In this document: positions 55,504 to 63,924 of the stretch, piece by piece | How the letters are laid out: the number at the start of each line of letters is the position of its first letter | How positions within the stretch are numbered: the first letter of the stretch is position 1 | From: Fistulifera solaris | Taxonomy: Eukaryota | Length of the DNA stretch: 64,000 bases | Assembly: GCA_030295235.1 (NCBI GenBank) | Contig: AP026153.1 | Coordinates: 124,001 to 188,000, forward strand | Direction: 5' to 3' | Position numbers and translations under genes: made by a program | Notes under the pieces: model-generated | Database searches by the model: none | The model's input: the letters and a program-made list of their open reading frames with translations, nothing else | Told to the model about the DNA's origin: nothing

Positions 55504-56046
55504 ATGTCTTTCGCAATGGAGAATTCACTTTGCTTGGATACAAGCAGAGAGTAGATATTGCATGATATCAATCATAGTTTGTTTTTAGTCGATAGAAGAA
55601 TTCAAATTATCGTCATACCAGGTATTTGTTCAACAAGTTTGATCACATGCAATGCAAAGAAGGATCTTGTTTCGTTTGATGTTGACGTACCGGTACTAAA
55701 GTGTACTATGACCATAAGTCATGAGTCCCGCGTCTTCTATACAGAATAAGCCACACTTCACGTAACCGTACTCGACGACTCTGAGCGCTAGAGTAGTATC
55801 GAGTCACTGAATGACCGATGAACCAACCAAAATGAATGACCCTTTTTCGGGGCGGAAATAACCGCGTTTTTGCCATCGAAACGTTTTAGGTTTGTTGATT
55901 CTCTTGTTCGCATCGAGAATCTCGAGAAGTAGAACAAAATAGGCAGCAGCGACATACTTCAATTGAAAACTTAAAGCAAGCGCACCTGGAAAGCCAAAAC
56001 GAGGGAGACATTCGTCGGAAAAGCGCTATTTTTGAAGAACATCAAG

Positions 56047-58542
56047 ATGCGTCCCGAACAACCCATCTCGAATTTAAACGATCTGAAGGGATCACTAGAC
56101 AACGACGACGACGACATTGTGTACCGTCCGTCCTTTCTAGCCGATATTCCGTTACCACCGCCTTTACCGAACGATGAATCCGAAGCAGCACATGATCAAT
56201 TACCGAATATTGAAGAATACAAAGCACAAGTCGGTCCTACTTCCACCGACAACAATCGTTGTTTGCGAATTTGTCTCATTACATCTTTATTTGTTGTCGC
56301 TATTGTTGTTTCCTTGACCGTCGGATTGGTGGTAGGAATTGAAGAGGGAATCGAATTGGAAGAAGACACGATCGAACGGACCCCTACTACGCCAGTAGCT
56401 TCCCCCGTTGAACCTCCGGTCGCATCCCCCGTCGCTCCGCCCGTCGCAGAACTTCCCACCTTGCATCCCGATGTCGCGAACCGCAAATACGAAATGGAAG
56501 AAATCGCCTTGGCGGAAGGGTGGTCCGATCTGTATTCCTTGTCGACACCGGGGACGCCGCAGAATCGGGCCTGTACGTTCATCGCCGAAGACGATCGTCA
56601 ATTGCCCATTGAACCCACGCTCGAATTGAAAGAACGTTACGCACTGGCCGTCTTGTATTATGCGTGGAATGGGGATCAATGGCGAGACAATTTGTTTTGG
56701 ATGCAGTACAATCATCATTGTGATTGGATGGCGTCCTTGCAAGACGATGAAGGACAGCCCGTGTCCGTGGGTGTCGTGTGTGACATGGATCAAAGTGTGA
56801 CTTCGCTGTATTTGGCGGGCAACGAAATGAGAGGTACGATTCCTCGAGAAATTGGACTTTTGCGGAACTTGTTTGAATTGGATCTGTCGGGTGCCCAGCA
56901 TTTGGAATCGGGGGAAGATGGGATTCCGTGGCAAGACATGGCGCAACTCACCAAACTCCAAACACTCAATTTGGCGAACAACAACTTTACTGGAATGATT
57001 GACCCACGTCTAAATGCACTGAAAACGCTGACCACGTTGAATTTGTCCAACAATCGATTCTACGGAATCATTCCCGCGGCAATTGCGGCGAATTTGCGAG
57101 AATTGTCGGTATTGAATTTGGAATACAATCAGTTGGGTGGTACATTAGATTCATTGCAAGACTGTGTGGCAGTAGCCATCTTGTTGGGGGGAAATAATAT
57201 CACGGGTACTCTCAAAAATGAGATTTATTCATCCTGGCCGCGTTTGGAAACGTTGGATCTGTCAGACAACCAACTGGAAGGAGATTTGCCCGCGGGTCTG
57301 TTTGCCATGGAAACGCTCACGGTAGTAGATCTGCACGGCAACCAATTTTCGGGTCCGCTGCCCGATGTCATTTCGACCAACTCACAAATTAAATTTTTGG
57401 CATTGCAAGAGAATCAATTGTCGGGAAGCATTGGTGATAAGTTACGGTATATGACAAGACTGGAGCATCTCGATTTATCGAACAACGCGTTGACTGGCCC
57501 TCTCCCAGAAGACTTTTCGATGATGTCGGACTTGCGATACTTGTTCATGGCGTTCAATGACCAATTCACACCGGGTCCTATCCCCGCATCGTACGGGAGT
57601 TTGATGAATTTGGTAGATCTATCGTTGCAACAAACCAATCGCAACGGCAAGATTCCTACGGAATTGGGACAGCTGACCGCGTTACAGCTTCTGGATCTGG
57701 CCGACAACGATTTGAGCGGCGCCATACCGAGTGAGTTCGGTACCATGGAAAAGTTACAATTCATATTGCTCAAAGACAACATGCTCACCGGTACGCTTCC
57801 GGCGAGTTTGTTGGAATTGACCCGACTGGCGATCTTGGTCATCAACGATAATTCGTTCTCGGGAACCACCAATGAGCTCTGTTTGGAAGGTGGCAAATTC
57901 GCCATTGAAACGATGGACGTGATCGTATCGGATTGTGGTGACTTGGCGTGCGAATGCTGTGTTTGTTGTAACACGGCCGAAGGCAACCGAACATCCGAGT
58001 GTGTCCTCTCGGTCTGGTTCAATGACGTGGATCCAGTGTATTCTCCCTTCTATCGGTACCAGAGAGGATTTTATGCGTTTCAACAAACCGAAGTGGAGTA
58101 CCCTTCGTTCGAGGATGAAGGAGAAGATCTTATTCTATGGATCGATGATCCGGCCGCTCCGATTGATATTGATGGAGATGGTACCGTGAATGCGGAGGAT
58201 TCCGATGCCGACGGAGACGGTATTGCGAATGACGCCGACGGTGATAAAGATGGAGATGGAACTGCCGATTTCCAGGATGAGTTCGACAGCAATCCGCTAG
58301 AGACTGTGGACAATGATGGAGATGGAATCGGCGACAACGCCGATAGTGACGCGACCGATGCAACGGTGGGCGACGCGGACGGCGACGGCATTGGAGACAA
58401 TGCCGATGGGGCGCCAGAAGATGGTGATTTGGGCGACACGGATGGTGACGGTGTCGGAGACAACGCTGACGAATTCCCCGATGACCCCACTCAATACGAT
58501 ACCGATCCTGGTGATGATGCCGGCGGTATACGAAAAGATTGA
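56047..58542 (+). CDS. type II membrane LRR protein with C-terminal thrombospondin type-3-like Ca-binding repeats
   Basis: TM helix, PVASP linker, LRRNT (ERYALAVLYY...HHCDW), many plant-type LRRs (LDLSNNALTGPLP), a DC..C.CC.CC cap and DxDGDG repeats. Confidence 0.88.
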   Translation: MRPEQPISNLNDLKGSLDNDDDDIVYRPSFLADIPLPPPLPNDESEAAHDQLPNIEEYKAQVGPTSTDNNRCLRICLITSLFVVAIVVSLTVGLVVGIEEGIELEEDTIERTPTTPVASPVEPPVASPVAPPVAELPTLHPDVANRKYEMEEIALAEGWSDLYSLSTPGTPQNRACTFIAEDDRQLPIEPTLELKERYALAVLYYAWNGDQWRDNLFWMQYNHHCDWMASLQDDEGQPVSVGVVCDMDQSVTSLYLAGNEMRGTIPREIGLLRNLFELDLSGAQHLESGEDGIPWQDMAQLTKLQTLNLANNNFTGMIDPRLNALKTLTTLNLSNNRFYGIIPAAIAANLRELSVLNLEYNQLGGTLDSLQDCVAVAILLGGNNITGTLKNEIYSSWPRLETLDLSDNQLEGDLPAGLFAMETLTVVDLHGNQFSGPLPDVISTNSQIKFLALQENQLSGSIGDKLRYMTRLEHLDLSNNALTGPLPEDFSMMSDLRYLFMAFNDQFTPGPIPASYGSLMNLVDLSLQQTNRNGKIPTELGQLTALQLLDLADNDLSGAIPSEFGTMEKLQFILLKDNMLTGTLPASLLELTRLAILVINDNSFSGTTNELCLEGGKFAIETMDVIVSDCGDLACECCVCCNTAEGNRTSECVLSVWFNDVDPVYSPFYRYQRGFYAFQQTEVEYPSFEDEGEDLILWIDDPAAPIDIDGDGTVNAEDSDADGDGIANDADGDKDGDGTADFQDEFDSNPLETVDNDGDGIGDNADSDATDATVGDADGDGIGDNADGAPEDGDLGDTDGDGVGDNADEFPDDPTQYDTDPGDDAGGIRKD

Positions 58543-59521: not shown

Positions 59522-60751
59522 TCAAGACCCCGCAATACTCAAACTATCATTGTCTGATTCCATGGGAGCAGCGGCGGCCCCACACGCCAAATCCCGCATC
59601 GCCAGGAGTCGACGTTCAAAATTCATCAATACCGAAGATGGTTGCTGATTCAACCACTCCAACGTATCGCGGGTTTGTTGCACCAACGGATCTTGTTCCG
59701 ACAAGACACATTCTTGCACCAACAGTACTTCTTCCAATAGCACGGCGGCATCGTCGTAGGCCCCTTGCGACAGTTGCAAGGACGCCAAATTCCATTGCGT
59801 CGCCGCAATCCCCAATAGAGGGGCTTCCGACGCTGAGCTTTTCAGTGCGACCCGTTGGATTTTAAGAGCTTCTTCCCAAGCGACTTTCGCCATTTCCAAT
59901 TCGTTCAATTCGTACAAGGCACAACCAATGTTATGAAGAATCTTGGCGACTTTAAGATGATCGTTGCCGTACCATTGACGCCGTAGGTGCAGTGCTTCGC
60001 GAAAGGCCACGAGGGCTTTCCGCGGTTGGTGCTGTTCCAAATGCGCCACTCCCAATTGCGCCAAACTCGTGGCCACATCGGCGTGATCATCACCCAAGGT
60101 GGTCTTCCGGATCCGAATTGCTTGTTGATATGACTGAGTGGCGGCGTCATACTGCCCCAAACGCATCTGTACAATTCCTCGATTGTGATAGGCCGTCCCG
60201 ACGCGTGGATGCGAATCGCCGTATCTCGTCAATAAACCGCGCACAATTTCTTCAAACACTTCCAAGGCTTCGTCATATTCGCCTTGTCGCAAATGTTCCG
60301 TAGCCATGTCATGAATCGCTTGTAAATTTTGTTCGACTTGTAGGGGTTCTCGTTTATAACACTTTTTTTGATCCTCACAAGTCTCAAAGTGATTTGACAT
60401 GGCATTTCGAATGTCATCGAGCGAAGAGTTATCATCCTTCTCGTGAAGAACAGTCGTTTTGGGTGATAATTGTTCGTAAGATTTCGTTTCTATAGACTCT
60501 ACGGGCAAAAATCGATCCACATAATGCGGGCGTTTGCGATGGGGACTCCTGGTTTGTTGTGTTTCATTACAGTTTTCTACGACATCCTTGTTCAAGATTC
60601 TCCAACGCATCTTTCGTCGCACTTTGCCATTTTTCATTTTGATCGACTTTCCTTTCGGTGGTTCGTACGTTTTCAACGGAGCAATGGAAAAATCGTCCGT
60701 TTCGTCAAACGATGTGCGATCGATCCGCAGATGAATCGCTGGAGGTCGCAT
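59522..60751 (-). CDS. TPR protein (kinesin light chain-like repeats)
   Basis: Repeats GEYDEALEVFEE, HPRVGTAYHNRG, LGDDHADVATSLAQLG and HLKVAKILHNIG. Confidence 0.88.
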   Translation of the reverse strand: MRPPAIHLRIDRTSFDETDDFSIAPLKTYEPPKGKSIKMKNGKVRRKMRWRILNKDVVENCNETQQTRSPHRKRPHYVDRFLPVESIETKSYEQLSPKTTVLHEKDDNSSLDDIRNAMSNHFETCEDQKKCYKREPLQVEQNLQAIHDMATEHLRQGEYDEALEVFEEIVRGLLTRYGDSHPRVGTAYHNRGIVQMRLGQYDAATQSYQQAIRIRKTTLGDDHADVATSLAQLGVAHLEQHQPRKALVAFREALHLRRQWYGNDHLKVAKILHNIGCALYELNELEMAKVAWEEALKIQRVALKSSASEAPLLGIAATQWNLASLQLSQGAYDDAAVLLEEVLLVQECVLSEQDPLVQQTRDTLEWLNQQPSSVLMNFERRLLAMRDLACGAAAAPMESDNDSLSIAGS

Positions 60752-61288
60752 CGTAAGGTGCTGTATCTCTATATTGCTTTCATATAATCTTTTAGGTCAT
60801 TACAAAAAGAGATTTCAAAGCAACGAGAGTATAATCGGAAAGGGTTGTATTTTTTATTTTTGTTGTTGCGCAGCAATAGGCCGCGTTATGCGTGTTCCGC
60901 CGCCTGTGTTTTCCGTTGAAGGCATAAGTCACAATTCAAACTTATGAAAGGTTTATAGTGGATTGTAGGGAACGACGTCGTTCTCTGCGAACCAACGGAA
61001 ATATTACTATCAATGTTTGAATACCGTTGTAATAAATCAAAGGAGCTATTCATTATTTCACAATGAACTGAAGTGCACTAAGAGTGTGACAACTCATTCC
61101 GGACTGAACGATACTGCTTTACGCACGACTGATGTGCTTTCTCCGCCCACGTGCCGAGATCGACGGAACGGCCGTTGTGAAAAAAGTCTGAAACAAACCG
61201 AATCATAATCATGAGAATGAATAATGCTATAAACATCCATCCTTCCTTCATTTCACTCTTTTTCTTTACACATTAATAGCTTCTGATA

Positions 61289-62033
61289 ATGCATCGAATA
61301 AATTGCTTCACAATTATCTTTTGTTCGTGGCTCTCTTGGTTCGCTTTCGCGCGAGACGTTCCCATGAAAAAAGCCATGCCTCCGCAAATGGACCCCATTC
61401 CGTACGTTCCATAAGTAATCGTGCTTGTGCACCTCTATCGTTGTCTCACCTTTTTCTTTCCGCAGAACACTCCCGGAAATCACGCAGCGGGTTTATTTTC
61501 AAATTTCGATTGACGGAGCAACACCGCAAAAAGTCGTCTTTGGATTGTTTGGGAACATTGCTCCGAAAACCGTCGAGAATTTTGTTGCCTTATCGACCTG
61601 CCGGATTCAAGAACCCGGAATATTGACGGGAAAATCACTCTGTTACCGAAATACAATCTTTCATCGCATTATACCGCATTTTGCCTTGCAGGGTGGAGAT
61701 TTCTCGCACGGCGATGGCACCGGTGGTGAATCGATTTATGGGGGACGATTCGAAGATGAATCCTTTGCCGTGAAATTCAATCGTCCCTACCTATTGGCCA
61801 TGTCCAATGCCGGACGAAACAGCAATGGCTCCCAATTCTTTATAACGGTCGTCAAAGCGCAATGGCTCGACAATCAACATGTCGTGTTTGGGACAGTGTT
61901 AGAGGGACGAGCGTTCATTGATGAATTGGAAGGATGGGGGACGTATGGTGGAATGACGCAGGGGAAAATTGAAATTGTCGAGTGTGGGGAAGAGCCATTG
62001 CAACCCGAAGACAAGGAACCTCATTACGGCTAA
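61289..62033 (+). CDS. cyclophilin-type peptidyl-prolyl isomerase with a signal peptide
   Basis: Exon 61289-61401, intron 61402-61465. Motifs PKTVENF, FHRIIPHFALQGGDF, NGSQFFIT and WLDNQHVVFG. Confidence 0.92.
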
Positions 62034-62200: not shown

Positions 62201-63924
62201 TTAAATCAAATCGGCCACGTCCATGGGCATTTCGGTAATTTCCGTATTGTAGAATTGCTCAATATCACGCAAATAGCGGACATCATCTTCGGCCAAAAAG
62301 TTAATGGCCACACCCTTACGACCAAAACGACCCGAACGACCGATGCGGTGAATGTAGTTCTCACGGTTCGTGGGCAAGTCAAAGTTGATGACCAAAGACA
62401 CTTGCTGCACATCAATACCACGAGCCAACAAATCCGTCGTGATCAGGACACGCGAAGAACCGGTACGGAACTCTCGCATAATAATGTCACGCTCGCGCTG
62501 GTCCATGTCTCCGTGCATGCACGAGACGGTGAAATCGCGCTTCTGCATCTCTTCTTGCAACCAGTCGACCTTGCGTCGGGTGTTGCAGTAAATAATGGCT
62601 TGCGTGATAGTCAGCGTCTCGTACAAATCACACAAGGTATCCAACTTCCACTCCTCCTTGTCTACGGCAATGTAGAATTGCTTGATACCTTCAAGGGTCA
62701 ACTCGTCCTTCTTGACCAAGATGCGGACGGGTTCGCGCATGAATCGCTCCGTCACTTCCAAGACGTCCAACGGCATGGTCGCGGAAAAGAGACACACTTG
62801 CACCGATTCGGGCAAGAACTTGAAGATATCATAAATTTGATCTTTGAAACCACGCGACAGCATCTCATCGGCCTCATCCAAAAAAAAACTGTTTAATGTG
62901 GTCGAGACGGAGGGCCCGACGGTTGATCATGTCGTATACACGTCCGGGAGTACCGACTACCACGTGCACACCGGCTTGCAAGGTGCGAATGTCATCGCGG
63001 ACGGCGGTTCCACCGACACAGGCGTGCACGGCAATGTCCATGTAATCCCCCAAGGCCAAAACGACCTTTTGAATTTGCTGGGCCAATTCACGTGTGGGGG
63101 CCAAAATGAGTGCTTGACATTCCTTGACTTTTGGGTCAACCTTGGCAAGAGTACCAATGGCGAATGTAGCCGTTTTGCCCTGTGAAAGAGAGGAAAAGTA
63201 GTGAGAGTGTGTAGGGGGGGATGCATCGACACTTTCACAGGAACAAACAAACGAATGAAGGAACCATCAAGGTGAAAGAATAGGTCCGTTTTCGAGTTAA
63301 TTGATTGTTATCAGACACATCGAGGGTAACTCTTTTCAGACTCGAAAGATGGTGTATAACAGAATTCATCATCCCTATTTATTCTAACAAGAGCATATAC
63401 ACAAGAATAGCACGTACCGTTCCCGACTGCGCCTGCGCAATCAAATCCCGTCCCAACATGGTGGGCTTGATCGCTCGTTGCTGAATTGCCGAAGGTTTCT
63501 CGAAACCGTAGGAATAAATTCCGCGCAACAATTCTTCCGGAATCTCCATGGCATCAAACGTTTCAATGGCTTCATCCCAATTCGAATCGAAATCGGCATC
63601 CGTCAATCCGCCGGGAGGAGCGGCCGCGGCTTCGCCCCCTTCATTTACTGGTTCATCTCTATCAAAGTAGTATTAGTATTAAAGTGTTGAATAGAGGAAA
63701 AATTGACAGAAAATGAGACTTGGACGGGCAGGAATACAGCAACGACAGCGGGCGCGCAGCGAGAAAAAATGAAACCTATTCAAACGAGTTCCCGACGATA
63801 AAGACACGTTTTGAGCGCCCCTCGCTCGGCCCTGGAAGTCCTCGTGCGACGCTTTCCTGTGAAGCCCTTTCAACGATTCAGCATCGATTGCTACAACCAA
63901 CACGTACCGTGGATCTTCGCTCAT
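62201..63924 (-). CDS. eIF4A: translation initiation factor eIF4A (DEAD-box helicase)
   Basis: [36 protein letters not shown] and [13 protein letters not shown]. Exons 63908-63924, 63418-63658 and 62201-63179. One extra base in the A-run at 62880-62888. Confidence 0.97.
63305..63378 (-). ncRNA. intronic box C/D snoRNA, snR39B/SNORD2-like
   Basis: Box C ATGATGA (63372-63366), guide CACCATCTTTCG complementary to LSU rRNA CGAAAGAUGGUG, box D' CTGA (63339-63336) and box D CTGA (63314-63311). Lies inside the 238-nt eIF4A intron. Confidence 0.8.

Follow-up and report, generated by a model that had tools for sequence, protein, structure and literature searches.

Intron 2 of an eIF4A gene in the diatom Fistulifera solaris contains a predicted single-guide box C/D snoRNA that would correspond in function to yeast snR39B, vertebrate SNORD2 and plant snoR39BY. 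The gene lies on the reverse strand of the window, by which we mean the whole 64,000-nt stretch of contig AP026153.1 that was analysed; coordinates below refer to this strand unless marked otherwise. We judge it probable that the RNA is an ordinary C/D guide with an old address in eIF4A among ochrophytes, and that the vertebrate match to the same host family came about by a separate arrival.

Host gene and anatomy of the snoRNA

Positions 63924-62201 encode eIF4A, with matches to the Pfam DEAD and Helicase_C domains. In a tree of 43 rows the window protein groups with diatom eIF4A and is of the eIF4A-I/II type, not eIF4AIII, while a paralogue in the same genome (L029, 71% identical to the window eIF4A) groups with yeast FAL1 and is of the eIF4AIII type. 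A putative exon 1 (63908..63924, coding for MSEDP plus 2 nt) was assigned from its GT donor and its conservation in a diverged second copy of the locus, found on contig C37 of the same assembly, and is followed by a putative intron 1 of 249 nt (63659..63907). Exon 2 (63418..63658), which ends in AQAQSGT, is supported by the sequence, the second copy and transcript contigs. Intron 2 (63180..63417, GT..AG, phase 0, between Thr86 and Gly87) is the snoRNA host. A contig from run X2 joins the flanking exons across exactly 238 nt, in agreement with the intron of that length given in the preliminary description; one contig from run X5 has the identical join, and runs X5 and X6 were small shares that were not used. 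Run X2 is of poly(A) type, has no intron cover and says nothing either way on the presence of the snoRNA. The preliminary description had also taken the length of this intron as an argument for a snoRNA. The 238 nt stand, while the argument is weak, since the putative intron 1 of the same gene is 249 nt long and poorly conserved between the two genomic copies.

Exon 3 (62201..63179) extends to the stop codon, carries the Pfam DEAD and Helicase_C matches and seems to shift frame within a run of nine T at 62880-62888. Both genomic copies are affected in the same T run, the window by one additional base and the C37 copy (L041) by one missing base. Because contigs from runs X1 and X2 are one T shorter than the window and four other diatom eIF4A loci read through this run, the frameshift is an assembly error. 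Downstream of the snoRNA, a 10-bp inverted repeat (63241-63232 with 63188-63179) would fold over the 3' splice site of intron 2; the second copy does not keep it. The neighbouring genes are a cyclophilin tail to tail with eIF4A (61419-62033, forward strand), a TPR protein (59522-60796, reverse strand) and an LRR protein (55975-58542, forward strand), and no tie between these three and the snoRNA was seen.

The whole predicted snoRNA with its terminal stem spans 63279..63379. In 5' to 3' order it comprises the 5' arm of the stem, AATAGG (63374..63379, 6 bp with 63284-63279); box C, ATGATGA (63366..63372), in which TGATGA is invariant in 9/9 copies; the D' guide CACCATCTTTCGAGT (63340..63354); box D', CTGA (63336..63339), invariant among the copies; a probable degenerate box C', TGTCTGA (63311..63317); a conserved element ACTCGAAA (63290..63297); box D, CGGA (63285..63288); and the 3' arm of the stem, CCTATT (63279..63284). 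The distance from box C to box D is 88 nt, compared with 81-93 nt in the other copies. A RUGAUGA box C and a GA-bearing box D thus stand with a terminal stem in kink-turn geometry, and the antisense beside D' exceeds the 10 nt expected of a C/D guide (12 contiguous pairs plus 2, with one mismatch).

These boundaries differ from those first drawn. The preliminary description had the snoRNA end at 63305 (63305..63378), with box C at 63372-63366, box D' at 63339-63336 and box D at the CTGA of 63314-63311. Boxes C and D' were placed correctly. Alignment of the introns of the two genomic copies gave 74/74 identical columns in the core, then 5/11 and then 18/19, with 28/42 and 75/118 identical columns in the flanks of the snoRNA, which speaks for selection on it; the second conserved block led us to the corrected box D, which it contains. 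The inner CTGA (window 63314-63311) forms 0-1 closing bp wherever it is present at that place, and wherever the 5' flank is present (9/9 copies) a D box located 37-52 nt past D' has the longest terminal stem (3-11 bp). Since the inner CTGA has no closing stem and the downstream D box has one throughout, we place box D at CGGA (63288-63285), which would make the snoRNA run to about 63279. CGGA is a CUGA variant that keeps the GA; the homologues have CTGA (5), TTGA (1) or CAGA (1). The CTGA formerly called box D is probably part of C', as its position suggests, and this motif is kept in most diatom copies, without a closing stem.

Comparison of nine copies supports the stem, five of its six pairs having changed on both sides. 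Pairing in the stem is 86%, against 25-52% for slid controls, which are lenient because the structure was derived from the same sequences. The folding z-score of the snoRNA alone (-0.02) is uninformative.

Could the motifs be a chance match, with no RNA made? An Rfam search, proposed in the preliminary description as a check on its snR39B/SNORD2 assignment, gave no match at gathering in the window; the best sub-threshold match was RF00055 (clan CL00072) with 21.4 bits against a threshold of 43 (E 0.74), and RF00535 (snoMe28S-Am982) scores 19.2 bits at the locus. The search pattern that we used also gives 22 matches in prokaryote genomes; these, together with about eight listed loci that have bacterial-type domains, are chance hits. 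However, only 4 of 200,000 Markov-1 controls of the intron combine a box C with CTGA and a 12-nt complement to rRNA, and no second site of this kind occurs on either strand of the window. The terminal stem is found in 9/9 copies with compensatory changes, and nine other algal eIF4A loci carry the guide, so that the boxes and guide are kept in related diatoms, where their absence had been named as grounds for rejection. We therefore give practically no credence to a chance match. The snoRNA is predicted to work like SNORD2, yet it falls outside the Rfam family by score. Diatom snoRNAs are nearly unannotated, and the window snoRNA is one that lies below the Rfam threshold.

Pairing with the large-subunit rRNA

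The LSU segment facing the guide has 16 matches in the genome, and 9/9 distinct rDNA copies viewed read GGGACCCGAAAGATGGTG. Against its own LSU (737-751) the guide forms 2 pairs, an A:C mismatch and then 12 contiguous pairs, so the match with one mismatch reported earlier holds. The mismatch is real: a diatom-specific rRNA change that would remove it was considered and ruled out, the 9/9 viewed rDNA copies all showing it. The rDNA units themselves appear as at least 16 dispersed copies on contigs C15, C16, C45 and C46, spaced by about 80-160 kb on C15 and C16, and not as one tandem array.

The fifth nucleotide from D' falls on the G of CCCGAAAG, which is G741 in the Rfam-bounded LSU of L035. 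This is the G equivalent to yeast Gm805 and human Gm1509 that characterizes the snR39B/SNORD2/snoR39BY group, as the preliminary description had proposed; the available part of PMC3511168 lists the equivalent site as Gm812 in Arabidopsis, Gm1509 in human and Gm803 in yeast. An Rfam-confirmed SNORD2 on a vertebrate-type locus (L103, 84.7 bits) pairs with the same LSU segment in the same register. Among rRNA sites scored for the window guide, the best reached 12.5 and the next 7.9. The A:C mismatch lies three bases ahead of D' and two pairs from the target and weakens the duplex, which has an energy of -20.7 kcal/mol, while the duplex of the SNORD2 guide in L103 has -26.6 kcal/mol.

Additional targets were sought. 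No convincing second-guide target in 18S, 5.8S or LSU rRNA was found ahead of the inner CTGA or of the true box D. Dual use of the guide for the neighbouring LSU A was considered and is not needed, as a separate guide exists on C13 and C14. This snR39/U51-type guide (C13:35916 and C14:38620; L170 and L171) has ATGACGA as its box C and lies in a GT..AG intron of a transcript without a conserved reading frame. Extra rRNA pairing beside the target has been described for human snR39b in the accessible part of PMC3116282. In the window snoRNA we found no support for it: the rank is 31 of 402 sites for the element ahead of box D, and 5, 17 and 19 of 407 near the target for the D'-C' linker, which is missing from three copies.

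The conserved mismatch raises the question of whether the RNA, once made, methylates at all. The last 8 nt of the guide, the mismatched A among them, are complementary to the element ACTCGAAA, and a fold-back of the guide onto it might, together with the A:C mismatch, make the RNA a folding chaperone or a regulated guide. The A at D'-3 is present in 9/9 non-animal eIF4A copies, in a scan whose pattern was limited to A or G at that place. Over nine copies the 8-bp fold-back has 87.5% of its positions paired, with the mismatched A opposite U in 8/9, and reaches -7 to -9.5 kcal/mol in 5/9; it is, however, weak or absent in the other 4/9. No two-sided changes were seen in it, and it cannot covary because the guide is invariant. 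Twelve perfect pairs nevertheless span the target, and the 21 pattern matches in this genome include no other guide for this G that is flanked by a box C; the guide stands with an upstream TGATGR box C in the two eIF4A copies only, a count that rests on the pattern. A weak or non-methylating guide is, in our assessment, highly improbable. The conserved A:C mismatch beside the target provides a test of how strict the guide-pairing rule is.

On the preferred reading the guide is an ordinary one. The snoRNA would be made as part of the eIF4A pre-mRNA and leave within intron 2, for which splicing was observed. By the known pathway, trimming would leave about 90-95 nt, organized on a C/D kink-turn that the 6-bp, covarying stem closes, and a fibrillarin complex would presumably load on the RNA. 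The D' guide, through the pairing described above, would then direct 2'-O-methylation of the LSU G. Judged from sequence, the guide is a real, ordinary C/D guide that appears new for this lineage and longer than first drawn.

Distribution in eIF4A and in other host genes

Metagenome contigs were scanned with a pattern of box C, gap, guide core and CTGA, which matched at least 121 stretches; the 120 listed loci analysed form 98 clusters, and 41 of these loci have short flanks only. Among these 120 matches, at least 11 guide loci lie in eIF4A, compared with none in a reversed-sequence control: seven diatom loci (six distinct), two chrysophyte-like and two vertebrate-type. Six share the intron position of the window (L056 and its equivalent L063, L059, L064, L073 and L155, the last being outside the tree and called diatom by 91-93% identity). 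In three others the intron, in phase 1, splits the Gly85 codon behind its first base, 5 nt upstream. These are L044, from a centric diatom (96-97% identical to Thalassiosira/Cyclotella eIF4A); L053, 94% identical to Paraphysomonas, in which only the intron acceptor is on the contig; and L096, which falls with chrysophytes on a long branch and was placed via a proxy protein. Since L044, L053 and L096 share the Gly85 position, we infer that the association between eIF4A and the guide predates the diatom-chrysophyte split. The 5-nt shift would then have happened inside diatoms, with the RNA kept, as suggested by one centric and two outgroup loci. The eIF4A address would thus be old within ochrophytes, and the snoRNA marks one intron at two sites 5 nt apart, a good candidate for intron sliding.

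In the vertebrate-type locus L103 the intron follows the first base of the Gly75 codon, in phase 1, 30 nt from the Gly85 site and 35 nt from that of the window. The preliminary description had placed SNORD2 in an EIF4A2 intron of vertebrates; the available text of PMC2653536 puts it in intron 3, and it is seen directly in L103. The same guide in the same host family is therefore present in a stramenopile, as had been proposed, and the same intron position is not. A SNORD2 (63.2 bits) is also seen at L081:298-367, in a degraded, rearranged eIF4A copy, where the intron follows TTDLL and is not the usual vertebrate one. Viral contigs contain 18 eIF4A-like loci (L190-L207; L190 is 77% identical to diatom eIF4A), each one continuous match and of no use for intron positions; they gave no match to the guide pattern. 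Among the 120 matches listed, no eIF4A-hosted copy was found outside ochrophytes and vertebrate-type loci, in a sample with no identified oomycete, choanoflagellate, sponge or cnidarian.

The guide is by no means restricted to eIF4A. A Pfam scan of 379 stop-free stretches from 89 of the 120 listed loci (10 of the eIF4A loci and 21 redundant loci were set aside) revealed, among the matches listed, at least nine other host families whose coding sequence matches on either side of the guide: NAT10, NSUN5, an ABC transporter, a class II glutamine amidotransferase, a chaperonin, ubiquitin-RPS27a, CBF/Mak21, PLU-1/PHD and an SR protein. These host names are Pfam matches and our interpretation of them. 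Several further listed loci have a Pfam match on one side, and many have none. In animal-like loci (L098, L147, L148 and L119) the guide sits in an SR-protein gene, in different introns. An A at D'-3 also occurs outside eIF4A, in L043 and L109 (a NAT10 intron) and in L082, L137 and L141 (one ABC transporter intron, two clusters); in L137 an snR39-type guide directly follows the SNORD2-type guide.

As control guides, the snR39/U51 type and U14 of this genome were compared with their chicken hosts. The former, in its intron without a conserved reading frame, is not in the chicken host gene, EEF1B2. The latter lies in an intron of a WD40+Utp12 gene, which we take to be PWP2-like, and not in the chicken host HSPA8; the U14-type snoRNA is found at C3:1675846 and C4:1789712 (L188 and L189) and is conserved between both copies. 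For U18, U24, U35 and U15 this genome gave no match or no box C with patterns that may have been too strict.

In the accessible parts of the respective sources, Ostreococcus Ot-CDsno46 is in an intron of a TPR gene (PMC7671301), and the same guide type is monocistronic in yeast, clustered in Arabidopsis and single in Plasmodium (PMC2656528). Neurospora Nc CD47 is intronic; its host gene was not found in the literature searched, nor was that of the Drosophila guide.

The preliminary description had left the choice between a very ancient association and convergence. For the former, a Gm805-type guide would have occupied the eIF4A Walker-A region ever since animals and stramenopiles had a common ancestor, its intron having slid by 30 nt in frame and then by 5 nt in diatoms, with the snoRNA moved out in other lineages. 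One guide type in one host family in two supergroups is in keeping with this, as is the spacing of the vertebrate and basal algal introns, both of phase 1, by a multiple of three. As given in the available part of PMC2891723, 30 nt fits the definition of a near intron pair (<32 nt) and one criterion of sliding. The diatom shift is an example of this intron moving together with its RNA, both lineages have long held the pairing (84/109 vertebrates, in the accessible part of PMC13736004), and a 44-genome survey scored both its diatoms 0 for this site, that is, without the guide. However, many independent exits would be needed (green alga, yeast, Arabidopsis, Plasmodium, an arthropod-like SR-gene host and at least nine families), with eIF4A copies confined to ochrophytes and vertebrate-type loci among the 120 matches listed. 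The available part of PMC3511168 reports 22 shared ancient introns, none with a homologous snoRNA. The SNORD2 of L081, in yet another eIF4A intron, indicates that moves within the gene happen without sliding, and the control guides, only two in number, do not share their chicken hosts. We consider ancient inheritance unlikely. If it were true, this snoRNA and its host would be the first such pair to be traced across eukaryotic supergroups, contrary to the published finding, and a snoRNA-marked record of intron sliding.

Shared selection would be another route to the same host. If eIF4A were a favoured host and the snoRNA controlled host splicing, as reported for human SNORD2 in EIF4A2, convergence would have been selected. 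According to the available part of PMC11028025, human SNORD2 base-pairs to the intron that encodes it, concealing the branch point and leading to exon skipping. Both lineages have kept the arrangement for long. In 9/9 algal copies, by contrast, the snoRNA pairs with the downstream intron no more strongly than shuffled sequence does (in a coarse duplex test, a fraction of 0.065-0.96 of the shuffles was as low), and the 10-bp hairpin spanning the 3' splice site in the window does not persist in the second genomic copy. We regard selected convergence as very unlikely.

Because the introns differ and at least nine other host families exist, independent arrival in eIF4A appears likelier than ancient inheritance. 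We thus lean towards convergence, with intron sites 30 and 35 nt apart and most sampled lineages hosting the guide elsewhere. Most likely, a mobile snoRNA arrived separately in a highly expressed translation gene. The host overlap provides a cheap, concrete test of whether the place of any intronic snoRNA predates the eukaryotic supergroups.

Relation to known snoRNAs

In the literature searched, which did not extend to subscription journals or bioRxiv supplements, we did not find this RNA described in a stramenopile, nor a shared eIF4A host; the accessible part of a Phaeodactylum small-RNA paper (PMC4247016) does not annotate it.

Listed guides of the equivalent site are yeast snR39B, Arabidopsis snoR39BY (covered by the RF00055 'SNORD96' model), Neurospora Nc CD47, Plasmodium PFS8 and Ostreococcus Ot-CDsno46. 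Unlike the window snoRNA, these are not hosted by eIF4A where a location is given (monocistronic, clustered, single or in the TPR-gene intron). The snR39/U51/U32A type (RF00535, CL00054) has an antisense element that overlaps the window guide, in a register two bases further.

The intron itself can be compared with the near intron pairs of PMC2891723, the available part of which describes them as lying less than 32 nt apart in orthologous genes and takes internal sequence shared between two introns as sufficient support for sliding. For the diatom pair at 5 nt, the snoRNA is such a shared sequence. The 5-nt shift, however, is not a multiple of three, and a mobile snoRNA can give shared sequence without sliding.

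The closest counterpart is vertebrate SNORD2/snR39B (RF01299, CL00072), represented by chicken GGgCD34 in EIF4A2 intron 3 (PMC2653536, in its accessible part). By its D' guide it pairs with the same LSU segment, places the same G at D+5, is intronic and has a host of the eIF4A family. It differs in its intron, which follows the first base of the Gly75 codon, 35 nt upstream of the window's and 30 nt upstream of the basal algal one; in the distance from box C to box D, about 70 nt versus 81-93 nt in the algal copies; in its guide, which is perfect whereas the algal copies have the A:C mismatch; and in the pairing with its own intron reported for the human RNA, of which the coarse duplex test gave no sign in 9/9 algal copies.
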